A stretch of 64,000 nucleotides of DNA from Spizellomyces punctatus DAOM BR117. Lineage: Eukaryota. Below the pieces are notes generated by a model. It was not told the origin of the DNA and did no database searches. It worked only from the letters and a program-made list of their open reading frames with translations. This document shows, piece by piece, positions 11,137 to 28,049 of the stretch. The DNA lies in assembly GCA_000182565.2 (NCBI GenBank), contig KQ257467.1; one strand, given 5' to 3'. Made by a program: the position numbers and the translations under genes. How positions within the stretch are numbered: the first letter of the stretch is position 1; every line of letters starts with the position of its first letter.

Positions 11137-11503
11137 CGCTCTCCACTTGTTATAAAGAATTTCCTTTGTCGGTTATCTTCTTTCTTTATTTCCATTCACA
11201 CCTTCCAGAGAGAGATCGGTTAGAAAAAGATGTTTTACCAAGTCCGAATCGAAGCAAATCGACCATCTCGTCATGCCCTGACCCAATGGCAACCGTTAAG
11301 GAATCGGAGATTTTAAGATGTGACCCTGTATTATTATGATTCAGAAGTTACTTTGAAATTGGCTATATTTTTAGTTGCTGCCCTTGTAAGTAGTCATGGC
11401 CACGCTTCGTTAATTGTTTTGATGTAAAGTGATGAATGAATAACTGGTTGTTTTAACAAAAGGATCTTAAATACCACAGGCTATCTTTCCACTTGTGCCA
11501 GAC

Positions 11504-14151
11504 ATGGACGACGAGGCAACCCCTAAACGGGATAGTGCCGTTGACATATCATATCCAGTCTCCAGTAACTCTGACGGAGAGTCAAAACCATCAGAATCAA
11601 GCCAGGCTTCCACACAGTTTCTACAACCTTTGGTAACTGGGGAAACACCATGGAATAACGACAAGCAACGACTTCGACCTCGTACTTCCCCCATCCCGTT
11701 TCATCCACTCCCACCCGGTGGTCGCCCACTCACTACTCTTCATTTGACAGCCCAACTTTCGACCATCCTTCTTCCGCCAAAAGTTCCTCCATGTCAAACA
11801 ATTTTATCGCCACCACAGACTCCAGTTACACTATCAACCCGAAAGAAGGAAAATAGACCTAGCTGGGACGACAACTTTGTTTCCGTTGAAGGAATGAAAG
11901 TAGGATCCCGAGGAATACCGACAAAGGTCGTCGACCGGAGCTATGAAGAAATTCTACAACGTCGAACACCTCGAGAGGATGACACTCCAAAAGTATCCAA
12001 GAAGCAAGATAACAATGCACATGAACAGCATAGTTGTGGCCGCATACAGAGTGATCCGACTCCTTATGCTCGCTCCTGTACTTCCCGTGTTCTCTCTGGA
12101 ACGTTTTCGAGAGATGGGATTCGATTAGTAGAGATTCCAGCATCCACCACGAGGAAGTTGTCATTCAACACCGTGAATGAGGATGGATTTTCTGAGACAT
12201 CTGAGGAAGAGGACGGGGCAGTTGCAGAGTTTGGACTGTACGCGACGGCACATTCCGATAATTTCAAAGATAGTACTGAGAGTAAATCGGAGAAAATATC
12301 AACTGGAGGGCATCCTTTTACGAAATGCTCAAAGCCTAAAGATGACATGCAAAGGAGACGAGAACAGGCGTTTGGTTTGGTCATTAATGGGTGTAATGTT
12401 AAAGATGAAGATTCGCCGCTGTCCGCCCAAGAGGCGTTGCAGGAACCAATATCAGTCGCTAATACCCTCGAGCCGCACGTTACAGAGCAAACTCCTTCAA
12501 ACAACGATCAAGACCAGCAGCCACAAACAATAGATACTCCCGGGGAGCACCTTGTTGAGGACCTGCCGTCTGCCGAGGAAAGTACCACCTCGGACTCCCA
12601 GCAATTCCAGTCCACCATGCCAATTACACAGTCAGGCGTCCTCGACTCCATCATCGACAATGACTTGATACAAGGGGATTTAGTGGGATGGACAGAAGTA
12701 GGCCAGGACGTTTTTTCCGCCTTCCATCAAGCCCAGGCTCGTCGTTTAGGTCGCGCACGTCGTGATGATGCATATCGCCAGCAGCTGCACACTCCTGCCA
12801 AGGCCAATGTCGCATTCGACCAACCTGGCGAAGTACATTCAAAAGCTCTCCCAGTTGTTCAAAGCAATTCTATTTCACATTCAACGTCCGTAGTAACAGA
12901 GGAGCCACTCCACCCTCTCGCGCGACACGGGTATACTACCACATCCACTTGGAAAGTTAAGAAAGACAAACGAATGCATCTACGTCCTGAGGTTGACGAG
13001 CGAGGCAAGATTACACGGAAATCTCGAACTCGCCCGGCCGAACCTACCTATAAAGATGGCTACCTGTTTGACACAAACTTGCCTCTCCGTCTCAATTTTG
13101 TCCATCCAATCCTTCTCCCCGATGGGACGGAAAAAGAAGATGATGGCATACCATCCGACAGTGACGATAACGTATCATCCACGGGTGAACCTTGTCGACC
13201 AGTTCTACCTGATCCATATGCCGAACCACTCAACCAAACAATGCTCGATCTACCGGAAGAACGGGCAACGGAAAGTCCCTGCCCTGAGCCTCCACAGCAA
13301 ACGGAACCTGTCGAAGAGGTTCGTCCCCCAAGTGCAGAAGCAGGTGCACTTGCCCCCGCCGTCGAATCTCCCGAAATATTGACAGACCCCGCCACAGCCC
13401 AATGGCGACACCAAAGAAACGTGGCCGCCCTTACCATGAAGGAGTTGAAAAAGATTTTTCCCCCTTTGATGAAGCAATACCTGGGACGACGACGGTCGGA
13501 TACAAAAGGAAGGGCGCGACATGCTTCCAAAGAACTCTATGAACCTCAACCCCATAACAAGAGAATGATACCGCCAAAACCTCGCCATCGTCATTCCCTG
13601 CTGGCAGGGAATGGCAACATTGGCTTACAGGTAAGGAAGACTCAACTTGACAATCCACGCTTGACGATTTCTCCTAATCTCGTTATAACATAAAGCAAAC
13701 AATGTGGAAAACTATGGATGCGGAATTTCAGGCACAGGGAAAGCATGTGCATTGCGACTTTGGTTCAACGCGGTTGCCAGGCCTCGCCTTATCCAACCCT
13801 TCATTGTCCGACTACAGCTCAAGCCCGCTGATCGTACCCTTTGGTCAATCGCACAGCAAGCAACTGACAAAAGGAAGCAGCGAGCCTCATTTGTCATTGC
13901 CCTTTAGCATTTCCTTGCCAACGCTAGTGCACCCGTCGGAAAAGTATAGGTTCAGAGTAAAACAGGCCTTACCGCACCATCCTGCGAGGAAGAAATGTCT
14001 TGACCTTCAGACCCGTACCTTGTCAGATCCTAGTATTTCATTATCGCTCTCGTCATCATTAGCATTGATGCGGTCGAAGCAGGCTAGTAACATTGAAGGG
14101 GCCAATCGTCCACTCATGTTTCCAGCAATTGTGAGCGGTGAATTAGGCTAG
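11504..14151 (+). CDS. Large, probably disordered hypothetical protein
   Basis: ~730-codon open frame rich in P/S/E/T, a CAG|GTAAGG donor at ~13631 and a downstream 149-codon frame. Exact ends uncertain; no domain recognised. Confidence 0.65.
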
Positions 14152-16398: not shown

Positions 16399-19300
16399 AT
16401 GTCCTCCAGAATCCTTCTTCTCGCCTTGGCAATTGCTACTCTAGTGGTTCCCCTGGAAGGTACAACGTAGTCTTGGAGGTTTCTTGGGCCCCATGTGAAG
16501 CTAATTTTATTTTCTTGCTCACAAAGCTCAAACGGATGTGCTTGTATATCCTAATGCGTCCTATGCAGGCAGTGCATTGACCCTCCCATCGTTCCAGTAC
16601 TACTCCCCGCCCAACACCCAGGACTACACTCTTGGATCTGTTCGTGTGCCAAACAGTATTGCAGCGCTTTTCTACCAAAACCAAGATTGGGGGGTAGCTG
16701 CTGCTTTTTACGAAGATGTTGCAAGTGTCAATATATCCACTGCGAATTTGACAAGTATCACCGATTGGAATGCTTTGGTAGTCAGCTGTAAGTTTGTTAT
16801 CATACACTTGTTCAAATTATCAATGTTATAATCAATGTTGGCATTTGTAGTGAATTGCAACCCGACCTGCTCTGCAAAAGGCATCTGTACTTCCAGTGGC
16901 ACCTGCTCGTGTCCATCCAATTTTCGAGGAAGTGCTTGTGAAGAATGTAGTCCAGGTTACTACGGTCCAACTTGCCAGCCATGTCCGTCTTGTGGAAACG
17001 GATTCTGCAATGACGGTATCCACGGGAATGGTACATGCACTTGTAATGAGGGCTGGCAAAATGGCGGTGGTACTTGCGATACGTGCGCTACCGGGTATTA
17101 TTCAAATTCGACCGCCTGTTTAGGTATGTTTTTAGGAAGCTGGCTATGATCTTCTTGTCATCTCACTCTTACCTGCGGCAATCATTACAGCGTGTATCGG
17201 TTGTGGTGGCAGAGGAGAATGCACAACGACCGGAAGCTCCGCTGGAACTTGTACTTGCCAATGGGGATACAAAACAGGCAGCGATGGGATTACCTGCGGA
17301 TCATGCGCCGATAGTTTTTACAAGGACAGCAATGGGCAATGCGTTGGTAAGGGTTACATCCCGCATTCTCCTTTAGTAGTTAGATCCACACGATCAAATA
17401 ATGTATTTAACGCTGGACTTTCTTCCTGTAAGCATGCTTTCAGGGTTGCAAGCAATGCCGAAATGGGGACGGTTATTGTGAGGTATGCTGGCCAGGTAAT
17501 ACTCGCAATGCTTCCTATCCGCAAGTGTGCGATCAAGATCAAAGCTGTCCAATGGCGGCTTCGAATATGGGCCAATATTGGGATGGAACTACCTGCAACC
17601 GTAAGTCCCTTCCTTTTAATCAATCCTTCCTTCCGCTAAAATTCCTGTGCATCCCGTTACAGAGTGTGTTTTGGGCTGTGTAAAATGTCGTCAACCAGAT
17701 AAATGCGAAGACTGTGAAGGTACCACCGTGTCAGCTGGCTTGTCTGGTGCATGCACTACTATTCAGAACACCAAAGGGTGCAGAAATGCACCTACTGCAC
17801 CAGTACCTGGGCCTACGAGAGGAGACGGCCAGGCTTTTTACTCTGTCTGGATTGCCGACAAAAAGTATTGTGACGGTTGGTATCCCTTCCTTGCCGTGTA
17901 GCTCCATGTGTTAAGCCTAAGTATGCCCCTTATTACAATACATAGCATGTCCTCTAGGATGTCTTGGGTGCGGAAATCCAGCGAGCATAGTTATAAACCC
18001 GTCAGCTACAACCCGGGATGCCAACTGGAATAATCAGACGCAGAGAAATAACTTGGTTTGCACCGCTTGCGTTCCTGGATATAGCCTTGTAAGCGGCCAC
18101 TGCGTAACGAGTTGTAGCGCCGGCCAATACAATGAAGGCACTTCTACATGTCGAGGTGGGTCGTAAAAAAGCATAAGAATGTTGCCAGTTTTTGTTGCTC
18201 ATTTCATTTTTCCAGCATGCCATTCATCATGCGCAACGTGTTCCGGCCCTGGTCCTGGACGATGCACAAGCTGTCCTAATGGTATTACACTGTCAAATGG
18301 TACCTGTACACCTACCCTGTCATGTCCGGCGAACCAATTTGTGGTGAATCAACAGTGCTTTGGTAAGTCGTCATGGCTTTAGCAAGAACCTCCATAAGAT
18401 GTCTAATGTTTTCGTCTCAAAGGATGTCATCCTGACTGCCTTGAATGCACTGGACCTGCTTATACACAGTGCACCAGGTGTGCAAGCCCTCTTGTACTCG
18501 TGGGGAATCAATGTGCATTGGCATGTCCAGCAGGACAGTATATGACTTCGTCAACGGACAGGACCTGTACAGGTAAGCTCCTGTCGACCGAAACAGCATG
18601 GTTTCAATGCTGTGGTAGACTAATGTCAGGTTTTCCCATGAAGCTTGTCAAAATGGGTGCTCCACCTGCAACGGTATTGACAAATGCTTTACCTGCAGCA
18701 ACGGATACCAACTTTACCGGGGACAGTGTATTTCGTGTTCATCTCCCCAAGTATTGGATGAATTAGGCAATTGTATTAACCCACCAACAAGTATGTCGTT
18801 TTGTCTTCTTTGCAACGGTTTTGAGCGGGGGCTGATTCTGTACATACTTAGCTTCGTCATCGACGGATGCATCGTCCAGTGAGAGTTTTTCATCGACAGC
18901 TTCCTCAACAGCTTCTGATGTATCATCCAGTGAGAGTCTATCAGCAACAGAATCGTCAAGTTATGACATATCAACTCCGGCGCCATCCACCACTGCCTTC
19001 TCATCAACAGAAGGAGAATCCTCCAGTTCAGAGGAACCAACTTCTTCTCCATCGGCTACTTCCTCGTCATCAACCCTGTTTTCCAGCTCAGTGGAGCCAA
19101 CCACTTCATCATCGGCAACGGAGACGGAATCATCGTCTAGTATGACTGAAACCACAACCTCGATGCCCACTTCGTCCAATGACAACCCGTCGTCAACGGA
19201 ATCTAGCTCAACACCGTCGTCTTCCATCACAGACTCCTCATCATCAGAAGCCTTGTCCAGCTCAACTTCCGATACGTTGTCAACCACTGGGTCGAGCTCG

Positions 19301-22300
19301 CAAGAACCGAGCCCCTCACCAAGTGAGACGGTATCATCTGAACCAAGCCCTTCACCAAGTGAAACCGAGTCCTCAGCTCTATTGCCGACTTCAAGTGAAT
19401 CAAGCACCTTTTCAAGCGCATACTGGACATCAACAGATTTATGGAGTTCATCACTGTCAAGCGAGGAGCCGACATTTACACATCCCCCGAGCTCAAGTTC
19501 GTTTTCGTCATCCACAGAGTCTTCTTTCTCAGAAGAGTCTTCCAGCTCGTGGACGTCTTCGTCTTCCTATGAAATCACAAGCTTCTCTTCAAGCTCTTCG
19601 GAACCAACCTTTTCACCTACAGTGACATTAACAAGTTCGGAGGACCAAAGTTCCTCGTCTTCTACGCTGAATACATCGTCATCGTACGCGTCCTCGACAT
19701 CGGAGGAACCAACGAGTTCAGCATCTTCTGAATCGCCTTCACCGAGTGAGACATTGTCATCTAGCGAGTCATCAAGTTCAGCAGAACAAACTTTATCTTC
19801 CTCCGAATCGCCTTCACCGAGTGAGCCCGTGTCATCTAGCGCGTCATCAAGTTCAGTAGAACCAACTTTATCTTCCTCCGAATCGCCTTCACCGAGTGAG
19901 ACCGTGTCATCTAGCGAGTCAAGCTCAGCAGCGTCAACTTCGTTCTCGTCTGCTACCACCACGTCGTCATATTATGCGTCCTCTACCTCGATGGTAGAAA
20001 CAAGTTCGTCGACCTCTGAATCTCCATCGCCAAATGTGACAATCTCATCGACATTGTTATCTAGCGAATCAAGCTCAGCAGAGTCAACTCCGTTCTCGTA
20101 TGCTACCACCACATCGTCATCTTATGCGTCCTCTACGTCGATGGTAGAAACAAGTTTGTCGACCTCTGAATCTCCATCGCCAAATGTGACAATCTCATCG
20201 ACACTGTCATCTAGCGAATCATCCACTTCACAAGAGACGTCGCTTTCGTCTAATAGTTCATCGTCGTCGTACGCGTCGAGTACACCCATGCCGGAAACGA
20301 CTCTGGCACCAAGTGGGNNNNNNNNNNNNNNNNNNNNNNNNNNNNNNNNNNNNNNNNNNNNNNNNNNNNNNNNNNNNNNNNNNNNNNNNNNNNNNNNNNN
20401 NNNNNNNNNNNNNNNNNNNNNNNNNNNNNNNNNNNNNNNNNNNNNNNNNNNNNNNNNNNNNNNNNNNNNNNNNNNNNNNNNNNNNNNNNNNNNNNNNNNN
20501 NNNNNNNNNNNNNNNNNNNNNNNNNNNNNNNNNNNNNNNNNNNNNNNNNNNNNNNNNNNNNNNNNNNNNNNNNNNNNNNNNNNNNNNNNNNNNNNNNNNN
20601 NNNNNNNNNNNNNNNNNNNNNNNNNNNNNNNNNNNNNNNNNNNNNNNNNNNNNNNNNNNNNNNNNNNNNNNNNNNNNNNNNNNNNNNNNNNNNNNNNNNN
20701 NNNNNNNNNNNNNNNNNNNNNNNNNNNNNNNNNNNNNNNNNNNNNNNNNNNNNNNNNNNNNNNNNNNNNNNNNNNNNNNNNNNNNNNNNNNNNNNNNNNN
20801 NNNNNNNNNNNNNNNNNNNNNNNNNNNNNNNNNNNNNNNNNNNNNNNNNNNNNNNNNNNNNNNNNNNNNNNNNNNNNNNNNNNNNNNNNNNNNNNNNNNN
20901 NNNNNNNNNNNNNNNNNNNNNNNNNNNNNNNNNNNNNNNNNNNNNNNNNNNNNNNNNNNNNNNNNNNNNNNNNNNNNNNNNNNNNNNNNNNNNNNNNNNN
21001 NNNNNNNNNNNNNNNNTAATCAAGTCACGTCGTCGAGTTTGGTGGCAAGTAGTTCCCTGTCGGCTACGAGTACATCTCTCATTTTTGGGAGCACTATTAC
21101 TAGTGTATCTGTGACATCTTCTTCCGCGGGTGTTTCGTCTCCTGCTGCCACCATCTCGTCTGCTACAGGCTCCTCATCTCTACGTCTTCCATCACATCGA
21201 CAACAGAGGTGATCGCAGGAGGTAACCAACTGTCAAGTACCCCAGCCATCGGTCCGTCCTCATCGACTCAACACGAGACGGGCACCCCATCTACTTCCGA
21301 ATCCGTGTCAGGAACCCCTAGCGAGTCGTTAGGTTCTCCAATCGAAATGCTTGCACCTCCGCCAACATGGATCAAACAGTATTGGTGGATACCTGGTATT
21401 GGTGCATCTTTTGGGCTCGTGGGAGCATTTGCATGTCTTGCATGCGTTCGGACACGAAATAAGAGGAGAAGAGCTCTAAATACTGATCAACGGCTTCAGG
21501 AATGGGAGGCGGCTATGGTGAGGCATCGTGTGGAACAACTTGATAAACGGGGGTCACTTCTGCCTCTTGGAGCCGACTTTATGGATGGTATAGGTGCAGG
21601 GCTTCGGAAGACGGCGAACCGATTGTCGGCGGCGCTTCGTCGGCCCCTATCACTCATTCTAGGTGCCCCAGTGAATTTGAATGTACCGCCCGCTGGTTAC
21701 GCTCCGGCTTCCACTGGTGAAATGGTTGAAAAGAAACAAGATACAGATGTCGTCATTGCAGATGAACCATTACAGGACAATACACGGCGTAGGACATATG
21801 AAAGAGCAATGCAAGGGTCGTCCGGCAATATGTTGGGTAACATTCCTGAAGATGAAGTCACAAATGAAACGGATCTTATCCGATTCTCGTCTCCGCCGGT
21901 CCCGAAAGATCCCAAGGAAGGAGATCTTATGAGATTTTCACTTCCACCGGTCGCGGGCGGTAGTAAAGATGGTGGGTCGGTGCGGACCTCCACGGGCAGG
22001 TTTTCTGCCTTGCGCCGCGCTGGAAAAGGTATGGGAAAACTCGTCATGAACAAAACGCATAATGAATGTAGAAGATATAAACATTTTGTCAAAACTCATC
22101 AGGGCCTGCTCAACCTGCATCCATACCTGAAGAATCCAGTCTCCCCCAACGCCTACAATTAAATTACAACACAGACCTACGCATCGGCGAGCCTCTTCCA
22201 AGCAACAGCAACGAAAAGCGAATCTACGCTGGAACGCTTGCAAAAGACCAGGGCTTCATTCCTCGTCGTGTAGCCATCAAACACGTTTGGCGCAATGCCG

Positions 22301-23131
22301 CAGAGAGTGATGAGCAGGCTTCCGCCGCTTTTGTAAGGGAGGTGACCATCATGGCTGCATTAGCAACCAACGAAAATGTTGCTAGAATTGTTGGATACTG
22401 TACCGTCCCAAGGATTATTGTCACGGATCTCTATGAAGGTGATTTGGACTTTATTTTGGGGAATCGACGGTTTGAGTTGCCGGATGCTCGAGCCGTGAGC
22501 ATTCTCAGTGATGTTGCAAAGGCCCTGTCCGGTAAATAACTGTTTTCCAATTCGACATTAATGTTTTGGTTTTGAGAAAAAGAACCTAACTGAAAATCCT
22601 TATTTCTACCAACCAGCAACCCATGAAATGGGTTTCGCCCACGGTCGTATCCGCCCAGGCGCCGTCCTCCTCGAACGAGTTAAAAATCCCGCCCGTGTGT
22701 CCGTCAGAAACTCAATTTTAAGCTTTAGTCAATCCCAACAGCCGCGCACTTTTTGGCGGGCCCGACTGAATGACTTTAGCGCCAGTCGTCCCGACGGTGA
22801 ATCTGAATCCAAGGCGCGGATTGCGCCGCGGTATGCTGCCCCTGAATGTATTTTGACGGACAAGCAGATTACTACTGCTGGAGATGTTTATTCATTTGGA
22901 GTGTTGATATGGCAGTGTTTGACGAGGAGGACACCTTGGGAAGGGCAGGAAGATGGATACATTGTCTGGAAGATCTGTGAAGGTGAAAGGTTTAATCTGG
23001 GGGAAGTCGTCACGGGCGCTTCCATTGTGAGGAAAGAGCTGCTGGAAATCGTCCATCGATGTCTTGCCCCAGAGCCTTTTGTAAGGCCGACGATAGGACA
23101 GATTTTGGCAACACTGGAAAAGTTGAAATAG
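16399..23131 (+). CDS. Single-pass receptor-like pseudokinase with crystallin-like, EGF/furin-like Cys-rich and Ser/Thr-rich ectodomain (spans assembly gap)
   Basis: Signal peptide MSSRILLLALAIATLVVPLEA; Cys-rich exons (CSPGYYGPTCQPCPSCGNGFCNDGIHGNGTCTC; CHSSCATCSGPGPGRCTSCP); Ser-rich stalk; TM WWIPGIGASFGLVGAFACLACV followed by RTRNKRRR. Kinase fold: VAIK, FVREV, HGRIRPGAVLL, LNDFS, RYAAPE, DVYSFGVLIWQ, RPT. Confidence 0.8.
19722..20225 (+). repeat. Nested coding tandem repeats in the Ser-rich stalk: 3 x 75 nt then 2 x 150 nt
   Basis: GAATCGCCTTCACCGAGTGAG recurs at 19730, 19805 and 19880; GAATCTCCATCGCCAAATGTGAC recurs at 20018 and 20168. Confidence 0.9.
20318..21015. other. Assembly gap (N run)
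   Basis: About 700 N characters inside the repetitive Ser/Thr exon. Confidence 1.
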
Positions 23132-24430
23132 TAGGAAAGAAATAATACATACGATGCGTTTAACCAAAATCATCTATAGGTACGAATCATGTACTGAAAA
23201 TACTGACGTCTTCTCTATCTTAACAAAACACATACACACACAAGGCCGACACCAACCTCCCAAAAGCCATTAGCAACGAACCCAACCATCCGTCCATAGA
23301 CAAATATCCGTGATAACTACACAAAAAGGGAAACTAAAAAATACTAGACAAGAGACTACAGAAAAAAAAAGGGGGACAAGACTGCGGAACTGAACAAAAA
23401 AACGAGATGTTTCTTTTTGTTTCATTTCCCATCATCATGCACATCCAGACCAAATCAAAAGTCCCCCCCAAAGCTACCTTATCCCACCCCACTCGAGTAT
23501 ATACAAACCATTTCACTCGATCCACGCCCTCTCTATATATGTAAGAAAAAAACGGTCCACAGCCTATATACAATGCATTCGCGTTCAAAAAAGAGGTTTC
23601 GATGAGTTCCGGCCCGTCTGCATATTTCCTTTAGCTTCTAATCGGGTAGAGGGGCTTTGATTGTCACTTCGCGTGAGAGGTTGGGGGAAAGGATGTCCTT
23701 TCTGTTCGCCCACCCCCGCCACAATCCAAATAGGCAATCTCCCCAAAAGCGGGGAAAAAATGCGATGGATAGGGGGGAGAGGAAAAACAAAAAGGATCCA
23801 TGCGCCTAAGATATTGACAAAAGTAATATACCGGAAATAATACTGACAGGCGGGCGTATCCGAAATATGAGGCATATACACAAATATAAACGCATATACA
23901 GAGGCGTGGTGAAAGGGCGCGAAACGAGTCGATAACAGGTATAATTCGTGTCGAGGGTATGGGATATAAACAGTATGCGCTTTGCGCTCCTCCACCAATC
24001 AGTCGATTTCGGTAGAGGAACAAAAGCCCATCGAGACGCTAAACAGCGCCGGGTCGCAACGGGGAAACAAATTAGGTACGGATAAGAGTACGGAAAAGGG
24101 AAAGTACGTGCAGGAGGGAATGAAAAAGAAAGACAAGAAAATTGGGAAGGGGTTGACACAACAAACATGATGGTTCGTTCGAATAGGTGTGAGGCGGAGA
24201 GGCAGCGAAGGGAAAAAATGATGGGTCGTCATCGACAAAGCCGCACAACCGTAGGTGAAAAAAATTCGATGAATTCGATAGGATAAAAGAATGCGTAGAA
24301 GTTCTAACGTGCCTGCTGGCAGCTGGTGATTTTTTTTTGTTTTTTTGCTTTTGGATGTTCAGGTTATTCGATCAAATGGCTTATGGGTTTCGGTGAGAGC
24401 TATCCTCGGTGTGATGGAGAATCCAAGAAT

Positions 24431-26157
24431 CTATTGTCCCTTGCACCGCTTGGCTTTGATATGCCGGTGCAACGCGTCGAGCCTGGTAACTATGAGTAAC
24501 AGAAAGGATGAGATTCTGATTGGATTCTTGCTAATGACCAGTAGAGAGCCAAACGTACATGTCGTTTTGCAATCCTCGCACGAGTAAGGCTTGAAATTCT
24601 CCAAGTGGGTGGTGGAATGCCTCTTGAGGTCGTGTTTACGCATGAATCTTAAACGAATGGCAATAGCCTGTGAGCCTGAGACGGACGAGAGGCACACGGA
24701 AATCTTGTACTCACCCGCGCTTACAGACTTCGCAGACATACGGCTTGTCCTTCTGATGCTGCTTGTAGTGGTTCTTGAGGTTATACAACTTTTTAAAAAG
24801 CTTTCCACAGACACATTTGAAGCAGTTGTGCTCTCCACGAGGTCCTTTCTGCTTCTTGTCGTCGCAGCCATGACTCTCATTGACGAAAAGGTAGACGGTT
24901 TTGGTGTCAGAGCACACTCCCCCTTCAGAAAATTCCTCAGGGTCAATGTCTGAGAATGAAGACGTGGAAGCATCACCAAAAGAGGACACTGTAGAGATGG
25001 ACGATGTGCTGCGATGCCGGGGAGTCTTTGCGCTCTTTGGAGATTCAGTCTTGATCGTCGGTTCAGAGGGCGAGAAAACAAGCTCCCCAAAGAATGGTTG
25101 GGCCGGCGGAGATGCAATCGGCGACGATGGAGCTGACAAATGTTCCGGAGAAATGGGTGTCAGCGGCGACATTGGCGAAGAGGGAATATTTTCCATCGTC
25201 GGAGAGACGACAGTTGGCATCGGCGCGTCATCCTCAGGTGAACAAGGTGCCGGCGGTGTGAGAAGGGAGGGTGGGATCGTCAATTCGTAGCTGGTCTGAA
25301 TTGTCGGGTGCAGGGCCATTTCCATGTCGTTTACGCTCGGAGGAGCAAAGACATTGGCTGGGCTGACTGGTGTCGACATTTGATAGAATTGCGCCTGTTC
25401 ACGAGGTAAGTCTGTAATAATGGGGCTGTTTGTCACCACATCTGTAGACCCGCTCTGCTGCAAATGCCAAACTTTAGTCCCCTTGAATGCTGTAATTCCA
25501 CACACAGTCTCTAACCTTTCCATAGATGGCATCCGTCATAGCCATATTTTCCGAATTAGATGCATCCCACCCAGAAAGTCCCCATTCATAATCAGCAGGA
25601 TACACCGGATGGCGGAGCATGTTCTCGTTCAGGGATTGATGTGAAGGGTCGGGTAAAAGTTGCGGTTGGCAGTCTGACAGATGGATCCCGTTCATATAGC
25701 TTTCTAGGGCAACTGTATCATGCGCGATCGAGTGGAGATGCTGGGCTCCAGGTGACATTGGCAAGTCGACCGCTCCGTAACTTTCATCCAAACCGCAATG
25801 AAGAGCTCTTTCAATCGGCGACATGTGCGTTGTTTCCCAACTACAGTAGCCCTCATCCACGCGTCCAACAGCTTCTGTCGCGTCGTGGGCCATTAGCGGT
25901 GCAAATAATCGCGCGTCAATGTGGAATTGCGGATTGGCCAGCATATTGTCTTCGAGTGGCGAGCATGGCGGAGAAGGAAACTCGGCCTTGACATGGCACG
26001 TGACTGGTTTGGGTGCTATCGGACTCGCCGTCGGTGTTGTCGTTGTTGATGCTGTTGTTGCATGGACTAATACCGGACTTGAAATTCGTCCTGCAGCTCC
26101 CTTGACCGGACGCGGATGTTGCTGATGCGACACGAGAGGAAAAAAGGACAAGGTCAT
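24431..26157 (-). CDS. C2H2 zinc-finger transcription factor with three C-terminal fingers (Crz1-type finger array), 3 introns
   Basis: Spliced C-terminus FKCVCGKLFKKLYNLKNHYKQH-QKDKPYVCEVCKRGFMRKHDLKRHSTTH-LENFKPYSCEDCKTTFTRLDALHRH, preceded by a long S/P-rich region. Intron GTTAGA...TTGCAG at ~25460-25515. Confidence 0.85.
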
Positions 26158-28049
26158 AGTGTTTCTTTTGGCGTGTTCAGAGGCGTTTTGGAGGATGGCA
26201 CAAAAGTCAACAAGATATGCTGTATGAAACGATGATGCCTTTCGGGTTGATTTCACCACTGTACGAAATGGGAATGCGAGAAAAACACGCAAGAGGAGGA
26301 TGATTCAAAAACGAAAATGATGCTATTCTCCCCAGCCCGCGCCAATGATCCGTTCTTTCTCGTTTCGCCGTGTATCCAAGCGGGCGGCAAAAAGAAGGAT
26401 GAACCACCAAAAGAAGGACGAAAAGGGCAAAGATGCCGGGAGTAGCTGGGGGGAAAGGGGCGGAAAGGGCGGAAGGGAAGAAGAAGGCGACGACGACGAC
26501 GAGACTTTTTAAGTCCCAAAATCCCAAAGGCAAAAAAACCATCACCCAACTTTTTTCCCACGCGCTTATTTCTTTGGGTTGTGGTTATAGCTTAGATCAA
26601 CAACAAGAAGGTGTAGATATACAACCCAAAAGCCTCAAATGGGGTGCAGAGATTCCAATAGATTGGAGTGCATTCCACGCATGTGACGTATTGGATCCAC
26701 ATTTGTTCAAATTCTTCATTTCCAAATGGCCCGAATTTGGATATGGCGACAAATGGATACAAACCGGTGGCAATGAGCTTTTAGCCTTTAAACGGAAGCA
26801 AGACGGAGCGCCGCCAAACGGTGAGGGAGCCAAAGGTTTCTCTGCGCTTCCAAAAAAGCCGTTCGGAGGTTCGATCACCGCATGGCTCGGTGTTTAGTTT
26901 GATCTTGTAGGTTTTCTTTTTATTTTAGATGTGAGCCCCCATCCCAAGGATCCACATGGCTTTTCAGTTTGGTTGCTGTCGTTTCGTTTGTTCATTGCTG
27001 CAGGCCCCGTCCTTGGGCGTTGCTGGTTATAGACAAATGCCCGCTTGCGATCTGCGAAATGGCTGCCATGTGTGCAAACCAAAAAGGGCGCCGGCGCGTT
27101 CAACAACAGTTCGCGTGGTCTCCCCCAACTTTCTCTCCATGCATTTCTCGCTTCATATTTTCTTTGTGACCTTGGCGTAGAAACGGGCGTTGAAGAAATG
27201 ACGGTCATCTCAGCACATTTGTGTTGAAATTATATATAAAAAAAAAAACGGCACGTCAAACGGTGGTGAGATTCAAGTTCATTACACAATGTGTTCAAAC
27301 AGCTCCACAATTTAGCCGTCGTCGGTCCAGTCAGGGCGCGTTCGATCCTCGTTGCTGGCAGATTAGATGGGAATTTTCCCCTGGTTTGCCGGAATGAACG
27401 ATGACGGCGATACGACTTTGACCATGACATTCGTTTCGTTTCGATCGTCATTTCGATGAATCTTGTCTTCTCTTCGCCTTTCAAGATCCATTCATAAACA
27501 TGCTCCATCGGTTTGTATGGTCACAATGTCATCTCGCCCAGATCGTTGCGCGTTTTGCGTCTGCTTACTCTTTGGCATCTGTCACGTCAGGCTTCCGTCA
27601 GTGCGAAAAAGGCCCAGTCAAGAAGGGGGCAAATAGATGATCGGATGTACCTTCATGCTAGTACATTTGCGACTGGACGTTTATGATGGCTCTTGATGAT
27701 GATACAGAATAACTCGTTTTTGCGTTCAAGAGATTGAGTGAGCGTGAGAAAACAATGGGGGAGGCTTGGAGAGTTTCCCACGTCCGCCTAGCAAGGCAAG
27801 CCTTGACACTTGCCACAGCATTCTCACACTCCCAAGCTTCCTGTCATCCGGCAGCCAACTTAAGGCACTTCGGTCATTGCCATCCACCGCCCTTTTGTAC
27901 AGCTGCCGAGGTTTGCAGACATATGCTTCGACGATTTTACATGGCTAGCAAGATTCAAAAAGGGCTCACTGTGGTTTTCAGATTTTGTATCGTCCTCTTG
28001 GAGACTCCCTGTCAATTCTCCCACCTCAACTATTTCGAACCCAACGACA

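Follow-up and report, generated by a model that had tools for sequence, protein, structure and literature searches.

The window analysed here, a stretch of 64,000 nucleotides (nt) from contig KQ257467.1 of the Spizellomyces punctatus DAOM BR117 assembly, carries on its + strand, between positions 16399 and 23131, the parts of a predicted single-pass receptor with a Cys-rich ectodomain, a long mucin-like stalk and an intracellular pseudokinase domain. We put at about 0.6 the probability that these parts make up one gene, coding for a type I membrane receptor of approximately 1,900–2,000 residues whose pseudokinase derives from a family of active receptor kinases. A reading made earlier from the letters of the window (the sequence-only reading below) had proposed a single-pass receptor pseudokinase in a fungus-like genome, and every element that it listed was found again between 16399 and 23131 on the + strand. 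The translation of exon 2 is 100% identical to the public model SPPG_07946, which identifies the host as S. punctatus DAOM BR117, a soil chytrid standing outside Dikarya, so that the fungal origin surmised earlier was correct. As to the receptor itself, the proposed anatomy, the status of the kinase domain and the membrane topology seen in its kin all stand, whereas the ectodomain and the transmembrane–kinase part are only probably united in one transcript.

The intracellular domain is encoded by two exons, A (22103..22531, +) and B (22617..23131, +, with the stop codon at 23129-23131). Both exceed the Pfam cutoff, exon A for PK_Tyr_Ser-Thr (E 2e-9) and exon B for Pkinase (E 1.6e-13) as well as for PK_Tyr_Ser-Thr (E 4.7e-12), which places the domain within the eukaryotic protein kinase fold. 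Exon A holds the pre-kinase motif LPQRLQLNYNTDLRIG, a degenerate Gly loop (22189-22227), the lysine of the VAIK motif (22279-22281) and the glutamate of helix alphaC (22339-22341); exon B holds the catalytic loop HGRIRPGAV (22640-22666), an insert (22682-22756), the triplet DFS at the DFG position (22772-22780) and the APE motif (22838-22846). In the family alignment A1, whose 24 rows are five Spizellomycetales orthologues and 19 relatives, the beta3 lysine, the alphaC glutamate and the histidine and phenylalanine of the two catalytic motifs are invariant, and the DFG aspartate is nearly so. The catalytic loop reads MGFAHGR[VIL]RP[GR]AVLL in the orthologues versus xGIxHRDxKxxNxL in the relatives, the DFG position [NG]DFS versus D/E-FG (DFT in one row), and the Gly-rich loop of the relatives is represented in the orthologues by SN[SN][KH]EK (SNSNEK in S. 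punctatus). Within the orthologue clade the catalytic aspartate has been replaced by arginine, the lysine of HRDxK by arginine and the metal-binding asparagine by alanine, and all three replacements are fixed. The description given by the sequence-only reading, according to which VAIK and the alphaC glutamate are kept while the Gly loop is missing, HRD has become HGR, the catalytic-loop asparagine is lost and DFG reads DFS, is thus confirmed by A1 and by the AlphaFold2 model, with alanine in the place of the asparagine.

The AlphaFold2 model built on A1 shows an intact kinase fold: most of residues 236-540 have a predicted local distance difference test score (pLDDT) of at least ~90, and weaker blocks lie at ~261-280 and ~421-460. 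The conserved insert, of ~20 residues and with the pattern KNxxRVSVRxS[IL]LxF...QPR[ST]FW, lies between strand beta7 and DFS and is modelled at a pLDDT of only ~51-56; it is present in all five orthologues and in that clade alone, the relatives having no counterpart of it. A pairwise HMMER alignment of the Spizellomyces 'palustris' orthologue g02163 (P0001) with KIT had identified PARVSVRN as the catalytic loop and TFW as the DFG position, and was overruled by A1 and by the AlphaFold2 strands (beta7 = 386-391, beta8 = 415-420); the HGR/DFS assignment is accepted here because the family alignment and these strands place both motifs there. Foldseek matched the model to FGFR (FGFR3), FES, Eph, KIT and BRAF kinases with a TM-score on the target of 0.62-0.86, at E ~1e-17 for FGFR, Eph, KIT and BRAF. 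The nearest solved kinases are a mix of the tyrosine kinase (TK) and tyrosine kinase-like (TKL) groups. The catalytic loop of tyrosine kinases is HRDLAARN or HRDLRAAN. Neither the locus (HGRIRPGA) nor its active relatives (HRD[IL]K[ST]xN) have this form, which sets both outside the tyrosine kinase group.

The domain has been conserved well beyond the species. A query with the kinase C-lobe against proteins of 299-2000 residues gave five matches, all from Spizellomycetales and 55-96% identical: S. 'palustris' (96%), Powellomyces hirtus (71%), Geranomyces michiganensis (69%), Fimicolochytrium jonesii (67%) and G. variabilis (55%, at partial coverage). All five of these orthologues, which represent four genera of the order, carry the same catalytic substitutions. 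P0001 matches the window at 96% identity over the kinase exons; over the exon coding for the transmembrane helix and the juxtamembrane region the figure is 89%. At larger distances the two regions part: P0001 is identical to P0002, P0003 and P0004 at 236/305, 236/305 and 220/305 positions of the kinase domain, aligned free of gaps (72-77%), versus 21/78, 30/92 and 42/122 positions of the juxtamembrane linker (27-34%, a further 78-122 positions being gapped). A quick maximum-likelihood tree built from 60 kinase domains gives the pseudokinase clade full support, with a stem of 1.66 changes per column and tips of 0.06-0.19; at the level of the sequences, the pattern is one of a burst of change followed by strong constraint. 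The tree leaves the place of the clade inside the receptor group unsettled, and the program warned of a long-branch join with P0089 and P0123. The earlier reading had itself named orthologues showing a decaying copy of an active kinase as the result that would overturn it; a kinase domain far better conserved than the linker beside it, with the same substitutions in all five orthologues, is not such a result. A further protein of 129 residues, P0022, is 63% identical to the pseudokinase N-lobe over query residues 279-353, and may be a truncated model of another orthologue or of a paralogue.

In passages of PMC13519141 and PMC4718504, pseudokinases are defined in sequence terms by the loss of at least one of the VAIK lysine, the HRD aspartate and the DFG aspartate. 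In the window and in 5/5 orthologues the HRD aspartate is an arginine, and the lysine and the DFG aspartate are kept. Together with the alphaC glutamate, equally kept in 5/5 orthologues, and the intact fold, these two residues mean that nucleotide binding is still conceivable from the sequence, and it may be argued from them that the domain is an enzyme after all, an atypical kinase or other ATP-using transferase that works with non-canonical residues in a catalytic receptor. Some proteins classed as pseudokinases do retain activity. This view nevertheless seems to us very unlikely, since the catalytic aspartate, the HRDxK lysine, the metal-binding asparagine and the Gly loop have all been replaced, in a form that is fixed in the clade, while among the 36 non-pseudokinase members of the receptor group of the tree HRD is kept in 35/36 and DFG in 36/36, so that the loss is clade-specific and coordinated. 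Judged from sequence, the domain is a conserved pseudokinase and not a decaying copy.

The origin of this pseudokinase is indicated by its relatives. An exhaustive search with P0001 against 1.84 billion representatives returned one cluster at E < 1e-30, that of the orthologues, out of 522 matches at E <= 1e-10 and 31,309 at E <= 0.001, and the next best match was ~30% identical. The nearest relatives have 23-31% identity to P0001 in A1 and up to 35% in the exhaustive search. They have in common the pre-kinase motif ALPGFLxLxYxTDLR, which at the locus reads ALPQRLQLNYNTDLRIG, and share a lengthened beta7-beta8 region and the motif SPRYAAPE. Unlike the locus, the receptor kinases of this set, P0044, P0035, P0067, P0121, P0089 and others, keep HRD (35/36), DFG (36/36) and a Gly-rich loop, and to judge by these residues the nearest relatives look active. 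One of the active relatives, P0066, is about equally near to the solved kinases of EGFR, CTR1, FAK, ErbB4 and BRAF, an equidistance that points to a family at the TK/TKL border rather than to a tyrosine kinase in the strict sense. The relatives also resemble receptors outside the kinase domain: a transmembrane-like segment, mostly with a basic flank, was found in 21 of the 28 that have at least 25 residues upstream of the kinase, and of 15 examined with Pfam, nine contain fn3, four contain Furin-like_2, VSP or GF_recep_IV, and one contains Ephrin_rec_like together with FG-GAP. Many of them have fn3 next to the membrane where the locus has its long mucin stalk. For P0013 and its relatives, most of the listed sources are assemblies from metagenomes and read archives.

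The ectodomain of the locus begins, after a signal peptide and a short N-terminal domain, with nine Cys-rich modules that contain 72 cysteines in total and are bounded by phase-1 introns. Exon 3 (16851..17123, +) carries two modules and 16 cysteines; exons 4-7 (17191-17346, 17433-17600, 17663-17875 and 17946-18155, +) and exons 8-10 (18216-18362, 18423-18572 and 18644-18790, +) carry one module each, with exactly eight cysteines. The exon 3 modules are of the laminin-type epidermal growth factor (EGF) kind, the exon passing the gathering score of Pfam EGF_laminin (PF00053; E 9.4e-9, 35.7 bits, cutoff 21) as well as that of EGF_Teneurin (E 6.4e-9, 36.2 bits, cutoff 24.3). Across exons 4-10 Pfam gave sub-threshold matches only (EGF_laminin, Furin-like, Furin-like_2, GF_recep_IV, VSP and related families), exons 5 and 6 having no Pfam match as single-exon queries, and the furin-like and growth-factor-receptor profiles PF00757, PF15913 and PF14843 matched single exons at E 0.013-0.76, under their cutoffs. 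These sub-threshold exons nevertheless align to ectodomains of relatives that pass the cutoff for Furin-like_2, VSP or GF_recep_IV, and their modules are probably laminin-EGF or furin-like. The signal peptide and the many Cys-rich exons of the sequence-only reading have held up, exon 3 as laminin-type EGF by its Pfam scores and the others as eight-cysteine modules by their counts.

The kinase relatives described above were retrieved by their kinase domains alone, and yet their own ectodomains match the Cys-rich exons of the locus. Exon 3 shares 49% identity over 73 residues with the ectodomain of P0044, an active receptor kinase (pairwise E 2e-17; tblastn E 1e-12), and exons 4-10 are matched in tblastn by the ectodomains of the kinase relatives P0035, P0067, P0080, P0089 and P0121. 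When 163 proteins were compared with the window by tblastn with SEG on, seven gave a match in the ectodomain, two of them being the public models of the locus itself and the other five kinase-retrieved proteins that match 16399-18800 at E <= 1e-3; P0067 matches the Cys-rich exons with SEG off too. This agreement supports the Cys-rich frames as the true coding frames. It also supports a single gene, since in the relatives homologous ectodomain modules and the same kinase subfamily are united in single proteins.

The gene model was built by hand on the + strand from stop-to-stop open reading frames (ORFs) and junction sequences. Exon 1 (16399..16459) opens with the ATG at 16399 and encodes the signal peptide MSSRILLLALAIATLVVPLE, with an alanine following after splicing, so that the protein begins with the signal-peptide-like N-terminus MSSRILLLALAIATLVVPLEA. 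Exon 2 (16527..16787) encodes a Cys-free N-terminal domain of 87 residues, which is 100% identical to SPPG_07946 (P0006) and 92% identical to the S. 'palustris' model g02161 (P0007); it has no Pfam match, and an AlphaFold2 model made from three sequences was uninformative (pLDDT 39). The join of exons 1 and 2 is identical in SPPG_07946. All 12 of the introns modelled are GT-AG, in phase 1 and 60-86 nt long, and the spliced 5' part runs for 1,084 codons, up to an assembly gap in the stalk, without a stop. The public models depart from ours downstream of exon 2: SPPG_07946, of 242 residues, takes exons 3-4 in frames different from ours and ends with a stop at 17376, and g02161 uses the same alternative frames. 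The annotated acceptor lies near 16896, against 16850 in our model. In these alternative frames neither P0006 nor P0007 matches a Pfam family at E <= 0.001, whereas the Cys-rich frame has matches above the cutoff, which makes the public 5' models weak evidence on the structure of the gene; we read the alternative-frame models as probable mis-predictions. In 16851-17376 the Cys-rich frame scores above the Pfam cutoff; several of the Cys-rich exons are free of stops in two of the three + strand frames. The UniRef label 'FAS1 domain-cont...' attached to SPPG_07946 found no support from Pfam.

The mucin-like stalk that the sequence-only reading had placed after the Cys-rich head is present on both sides of the assembly gap. 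Exon 11 (18852..20317, +) is open up to the gap and encodes 489 residues without a stop, of which 221 are Ser, 74 Thr and 37 Pro, Cys being absent; tandem repeats of 75 nt and 150 nt lie at 19730-20221, directly before the gap of 699 N (20318..21016). Further Ser/Thr-rich coding stretches lie 3' of the gap, at 21018..21346 (+), in two frames. The first is Ser/Thr-rich from 21018 to ~21179 and reaches a stop at 21210-21212; the second, 21176-21346, runs stop-free into the transmembrane helix. It is here that the continuity of the gene is in question. All the receptor parts follow one another in order on one strand, but the gap and the clash of frames lie between them and the RNA reads supply no joints. 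Several observations speak against a single receptor gene: the 699-N gap interrupts the stalk, between the head and the transmembrane–kinase part; at ~21170-21212 the stalk frame stops while the ORF of the transmembrane helix and kinase sits in another frame; among 56 GT-AG candidate introns of fitting length across the clash, none has the donor or branch-site features of the gene; the locus is divided in every public gene model (SPPG_07946; g02161 and g02163 in S. 'palustris'); no full-length orthologue model was found among proteins of 299-2000 residues, the search at all lengths giving a single cluster at E < 1e-30; and in the RNA run X3, of which ~6% was read, 228 reads were placed with no splice joint and zero depth over 19092-21983.

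On these grounds the locus could be divided into two or three genes, a secreted or wall-bound Cys-rich mucin-like protein ending in or near the gap and a membrane-anchored pseudokinase, which would start at Met21347 and have ~11 extracellular residues, with the helix acting as an N-out signal-anchor. The public models are split in just this manner, P0001 starting with MLAPPPTWIKQYWW at a Met just upstream of the transmembrane helix and SPPG_07946 and g02161 covering the 5' end only; the post-gap Ser/Thr frame ends at the in-frame stop at 21210-21212 with no repair by an intron; the region is unbridged by any RNA read, in data that are sparse; and the strongly basic flank behind the helix would orient a short N-terminus outward as well. 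Against such a division, the public 5' models read exons 3-4 in the frames that lack a Pfam match, and 81 stop-free, Ser/Thr-rich codons precede Met21347 in the frame of the helix, the last 57 of them holding 26 Ser or Thr. The gap is flanked by Ser/Thr-rich coding sequence at both of its edges, with the tandem repeats before it, an arrangement with scant space for one gene to end and for the promoter and start of another. Added to the union of homologous modules and kinase in the relatives, these features make separate genes, in our judgement, rather unlikely, and a single receptor gene the better account of the locus.

The frame clash itself may be either an assembly indel or a real interruption of the gene. 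In the latter case the frameshift near 21175 would be genuine and the locus a recently broken pseudogene in this strain, yielding no functional receptor, as the in-frame stop with no intron solution and the very low RNA coverage would both allow. The clash, however, lies only ~155-195 nt from the contig end beside the gap, and assembly errors are common near contig ends by gaps. All the other exons are intact and stop-free, the identity to P0001 is as high as 96% in the kinase and 89% in the transmembrane and juxtamembrane part, and the family is conserved across genera. A pseudogene is for these reasons highly improbable.

The RNA data bear little on either question. Run X3 gave a depth of 0.04-2 in scattered bins over the gene, and such sparse, joint-free reads decide nothing on exon structure or continuity. 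Runs X1 and X2 consist of genomic pieces, introns included, none of which spans the gap; one piece has an unmatched tail of 22 nt that resembles cloning-vector polylinker. Run X4 contributed no placement. In X3 the depth rises to ~40-fold at 23189-23400, 58-270 nt past the stop codon. The reads of this pile have the first-mate orientation of most of the sparse reads over the gene, with diverse loose ends at 23284-23362, and the pile could be the 3' untranslated region of the gene, seen in a 3'-biased library, or another transcript.

A single transmembrane helix followed by a basic stop-transfer and a long juxtamembrane region, both anticipated by the sequence-only reading, were located. The helix WWIPGIGASFGLVGAFACLACV (21383..21448, +) is conserved in P0001 and is followed by the basic flank RTRNKRRR (21449-21472). 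The juxtamembrane region (21449..22028, +) has 206 residues and is succeeded by a phase-1 intron (22029-22102); it is predicted to be mostly disordered, pLDDT being below 50 over most of residues 69-235 of P0001. Within this poorly conserved linker a DL[IM]RFS motif occurs twice in the window (21872-21889 and 21923-21940) and is kept two to three times in 5/5 orthologues: Spizellomyces and G. variabilis have two copies of [ED]DL[IM]RFS, while Powellomyces and G. michiganensis have three. We consider it a candidate docking or sorting motif.

If the locus is one gene, its product would thus consist of the signal peptide, the 87-residue domain, nine modules of eight cysteines, a stalk of at least 600 residues that is presumably O-glycosylated, the transmembrane helix, a disordered juxtamembrane region of ~200 residues and the pseudokinase. 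The pseudokinase would have descended from active single-pass receptor kinases at the TK/TKL border, in a lineage that lost the Gly loop, the catalytic aspartate and the catalytic asparagine, gained the insert of ~20 residues before the DFG position and then came under strong constraint across Spizellomycetales. The Cys-rich head, which the stalk would hold clear of the membrane and extend across the wall, may bind an external ligand or surface, and the signal would be passed inward without phosphotransfer, the kinase fold, the basic insert and the DL[IM]RFS motifs recruiting or allosterically activating an active kinase or an adaptor. Non-catalytic signalling is proposed here by analogy with animal receptor pseudokinases and plant receptor kinases, as these are presented in passages of PMC13259870 and PMC11259431, respectively. 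The sequence-only reading had suggested adhesion, mechanosensing or substrate recognition as tasks of such a receptor, and these are conjectural. A more specific scenario can be put forward only tentatively, and we think it rather unlikely: that Spizellomycetales keep a working receptor-kinase system built on laminin-EGF and furin-like ectodomains, a type commonly said to be wanting in Dikarya, in which the product of the locus serves as a dedicated non-catalytic co-receptor and as a wall-spanning sensor of contact or strain, similar to Wsc1 in form but joined to a scaffold of kinase fold, with a glycosylated stalk of 600-800 residues that takes the head across the wall and with the basic insert and the DL[IM]RFS motifs as docking sites.

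The idea of a wall-spanning sensor was suggested by the resemblance of the stalk to those of the yeast wall-stress sensors Wsc1 and Mid2, which have a head that is Cys-rich or a tip that is glycosylated, together with a long stalk rich in Ser and Thr, a transmembrane helix and a cytoplasmic tail. The likeness is one of analogy only: Wsc1 and Mid2 are without a kinase domain, and with no WSC domain found by Pfam in any exon and with a tail of kinase fold the locus does not belong to the WSC/Mid2 type of wall sensor. The ErbB-type ectodomain, furin-like and Cys-rich, resembles the head of the locus, and EGFR and ErbB4 belong to the solved kinases that come closest to P0066, one of the active relatives. 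The active relatives, however, have the catalytic loop HRD[IL]K..N and not the tyrosine-kinase form, which suggests that activity was lost independently in another lineage of kinases. The animal receptor pseudokinases HER3, EphB6, EphA10, PTK7, ROR1, ROR2, RYK and STYK1 are treated in passages of PMC13259870 as single-pass receptors that signal non-catalytically; in comparison with them, only the locus has the mucin stalk and the insert.

Outside animals and plants, the nearest described architecture is that of PATMK of Entamoeba histolytica, which according to passages of PMC2211552 has a signal peptide, bears 25 CXXC repeats in its ectodomain, spans the membrane once and carries a kinase domain inside the cell. 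PATMK has no Gly-rich motif and is discussed there as a possible pseudokinase, although it is said to keep the catalytic residues. It is an amoebozoan protein, likened to the locus here by its architecture, and a long Ser/Thr stalk is not described in those passages. The GDT and DRK receptor kinases of Dictyostelium, which belong to the TKL group, likewise have a signal peptide, one transmembrane segment and a C-terminal kinase, as outlined in passages of PMC1420674. They, too, are likened to the locus by architecture; the Dictyostelium ectodomains (GDT, DRK, TIG), as far as described in that source, differ from that of the locus.

Elsewhere in the 64-kb window, tblastn with the exon translations revealed no paralogue, and the kinase relatives matched no second kinase. 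Downstream of the locus, at 24431-26304 on the - strand, neighbouring ORFs are C2H2 zinc-finger-like, their sole Pfam match being zf-H2C2_2 at E 2.4e-4, below the cutoff. Upstream, at 11471-13693 (+), an open frame of 740 residues has no Pfam family at E <= 0.001.

Signalling in animals and plants relies centrally on receptor kinases and receptor pseudokinases, which, to our knowledge, are commonly regarded as absent from the well-studied fungi. The Dictyostelium kinome paper, in a passage of PMC1420674, has the whole TKL group lost from the fungal lineage, and a passage of a 2026 paper (PMC13618815) mentions receptor-like kinases with leucine-rich repeats in chytrid orthogroups. Searches of the full-text literature, supplements apart, turned up no paper that deals with this locus or with chytrid receptor pseudokinases of the Cys-rich kind. 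The public models divide the locus and read part of it in a wrong frame, and for this reason surveys based on proteomes do not see the protein. What the window reveals is a receptor-type locus in a chytrid, with an animal-style Cys-rich head and a pseudokinase under strong constraint in four genera. S. punctatus is a genetically tractable chytrid. If the locus is one gene, it would offer an entry point to the sensing of surfaces, or of their own wall, by early fungi, to the non-catalytic re-use of the kinase fold outside animals and plants, and to what was lost on the way to Dikarya.

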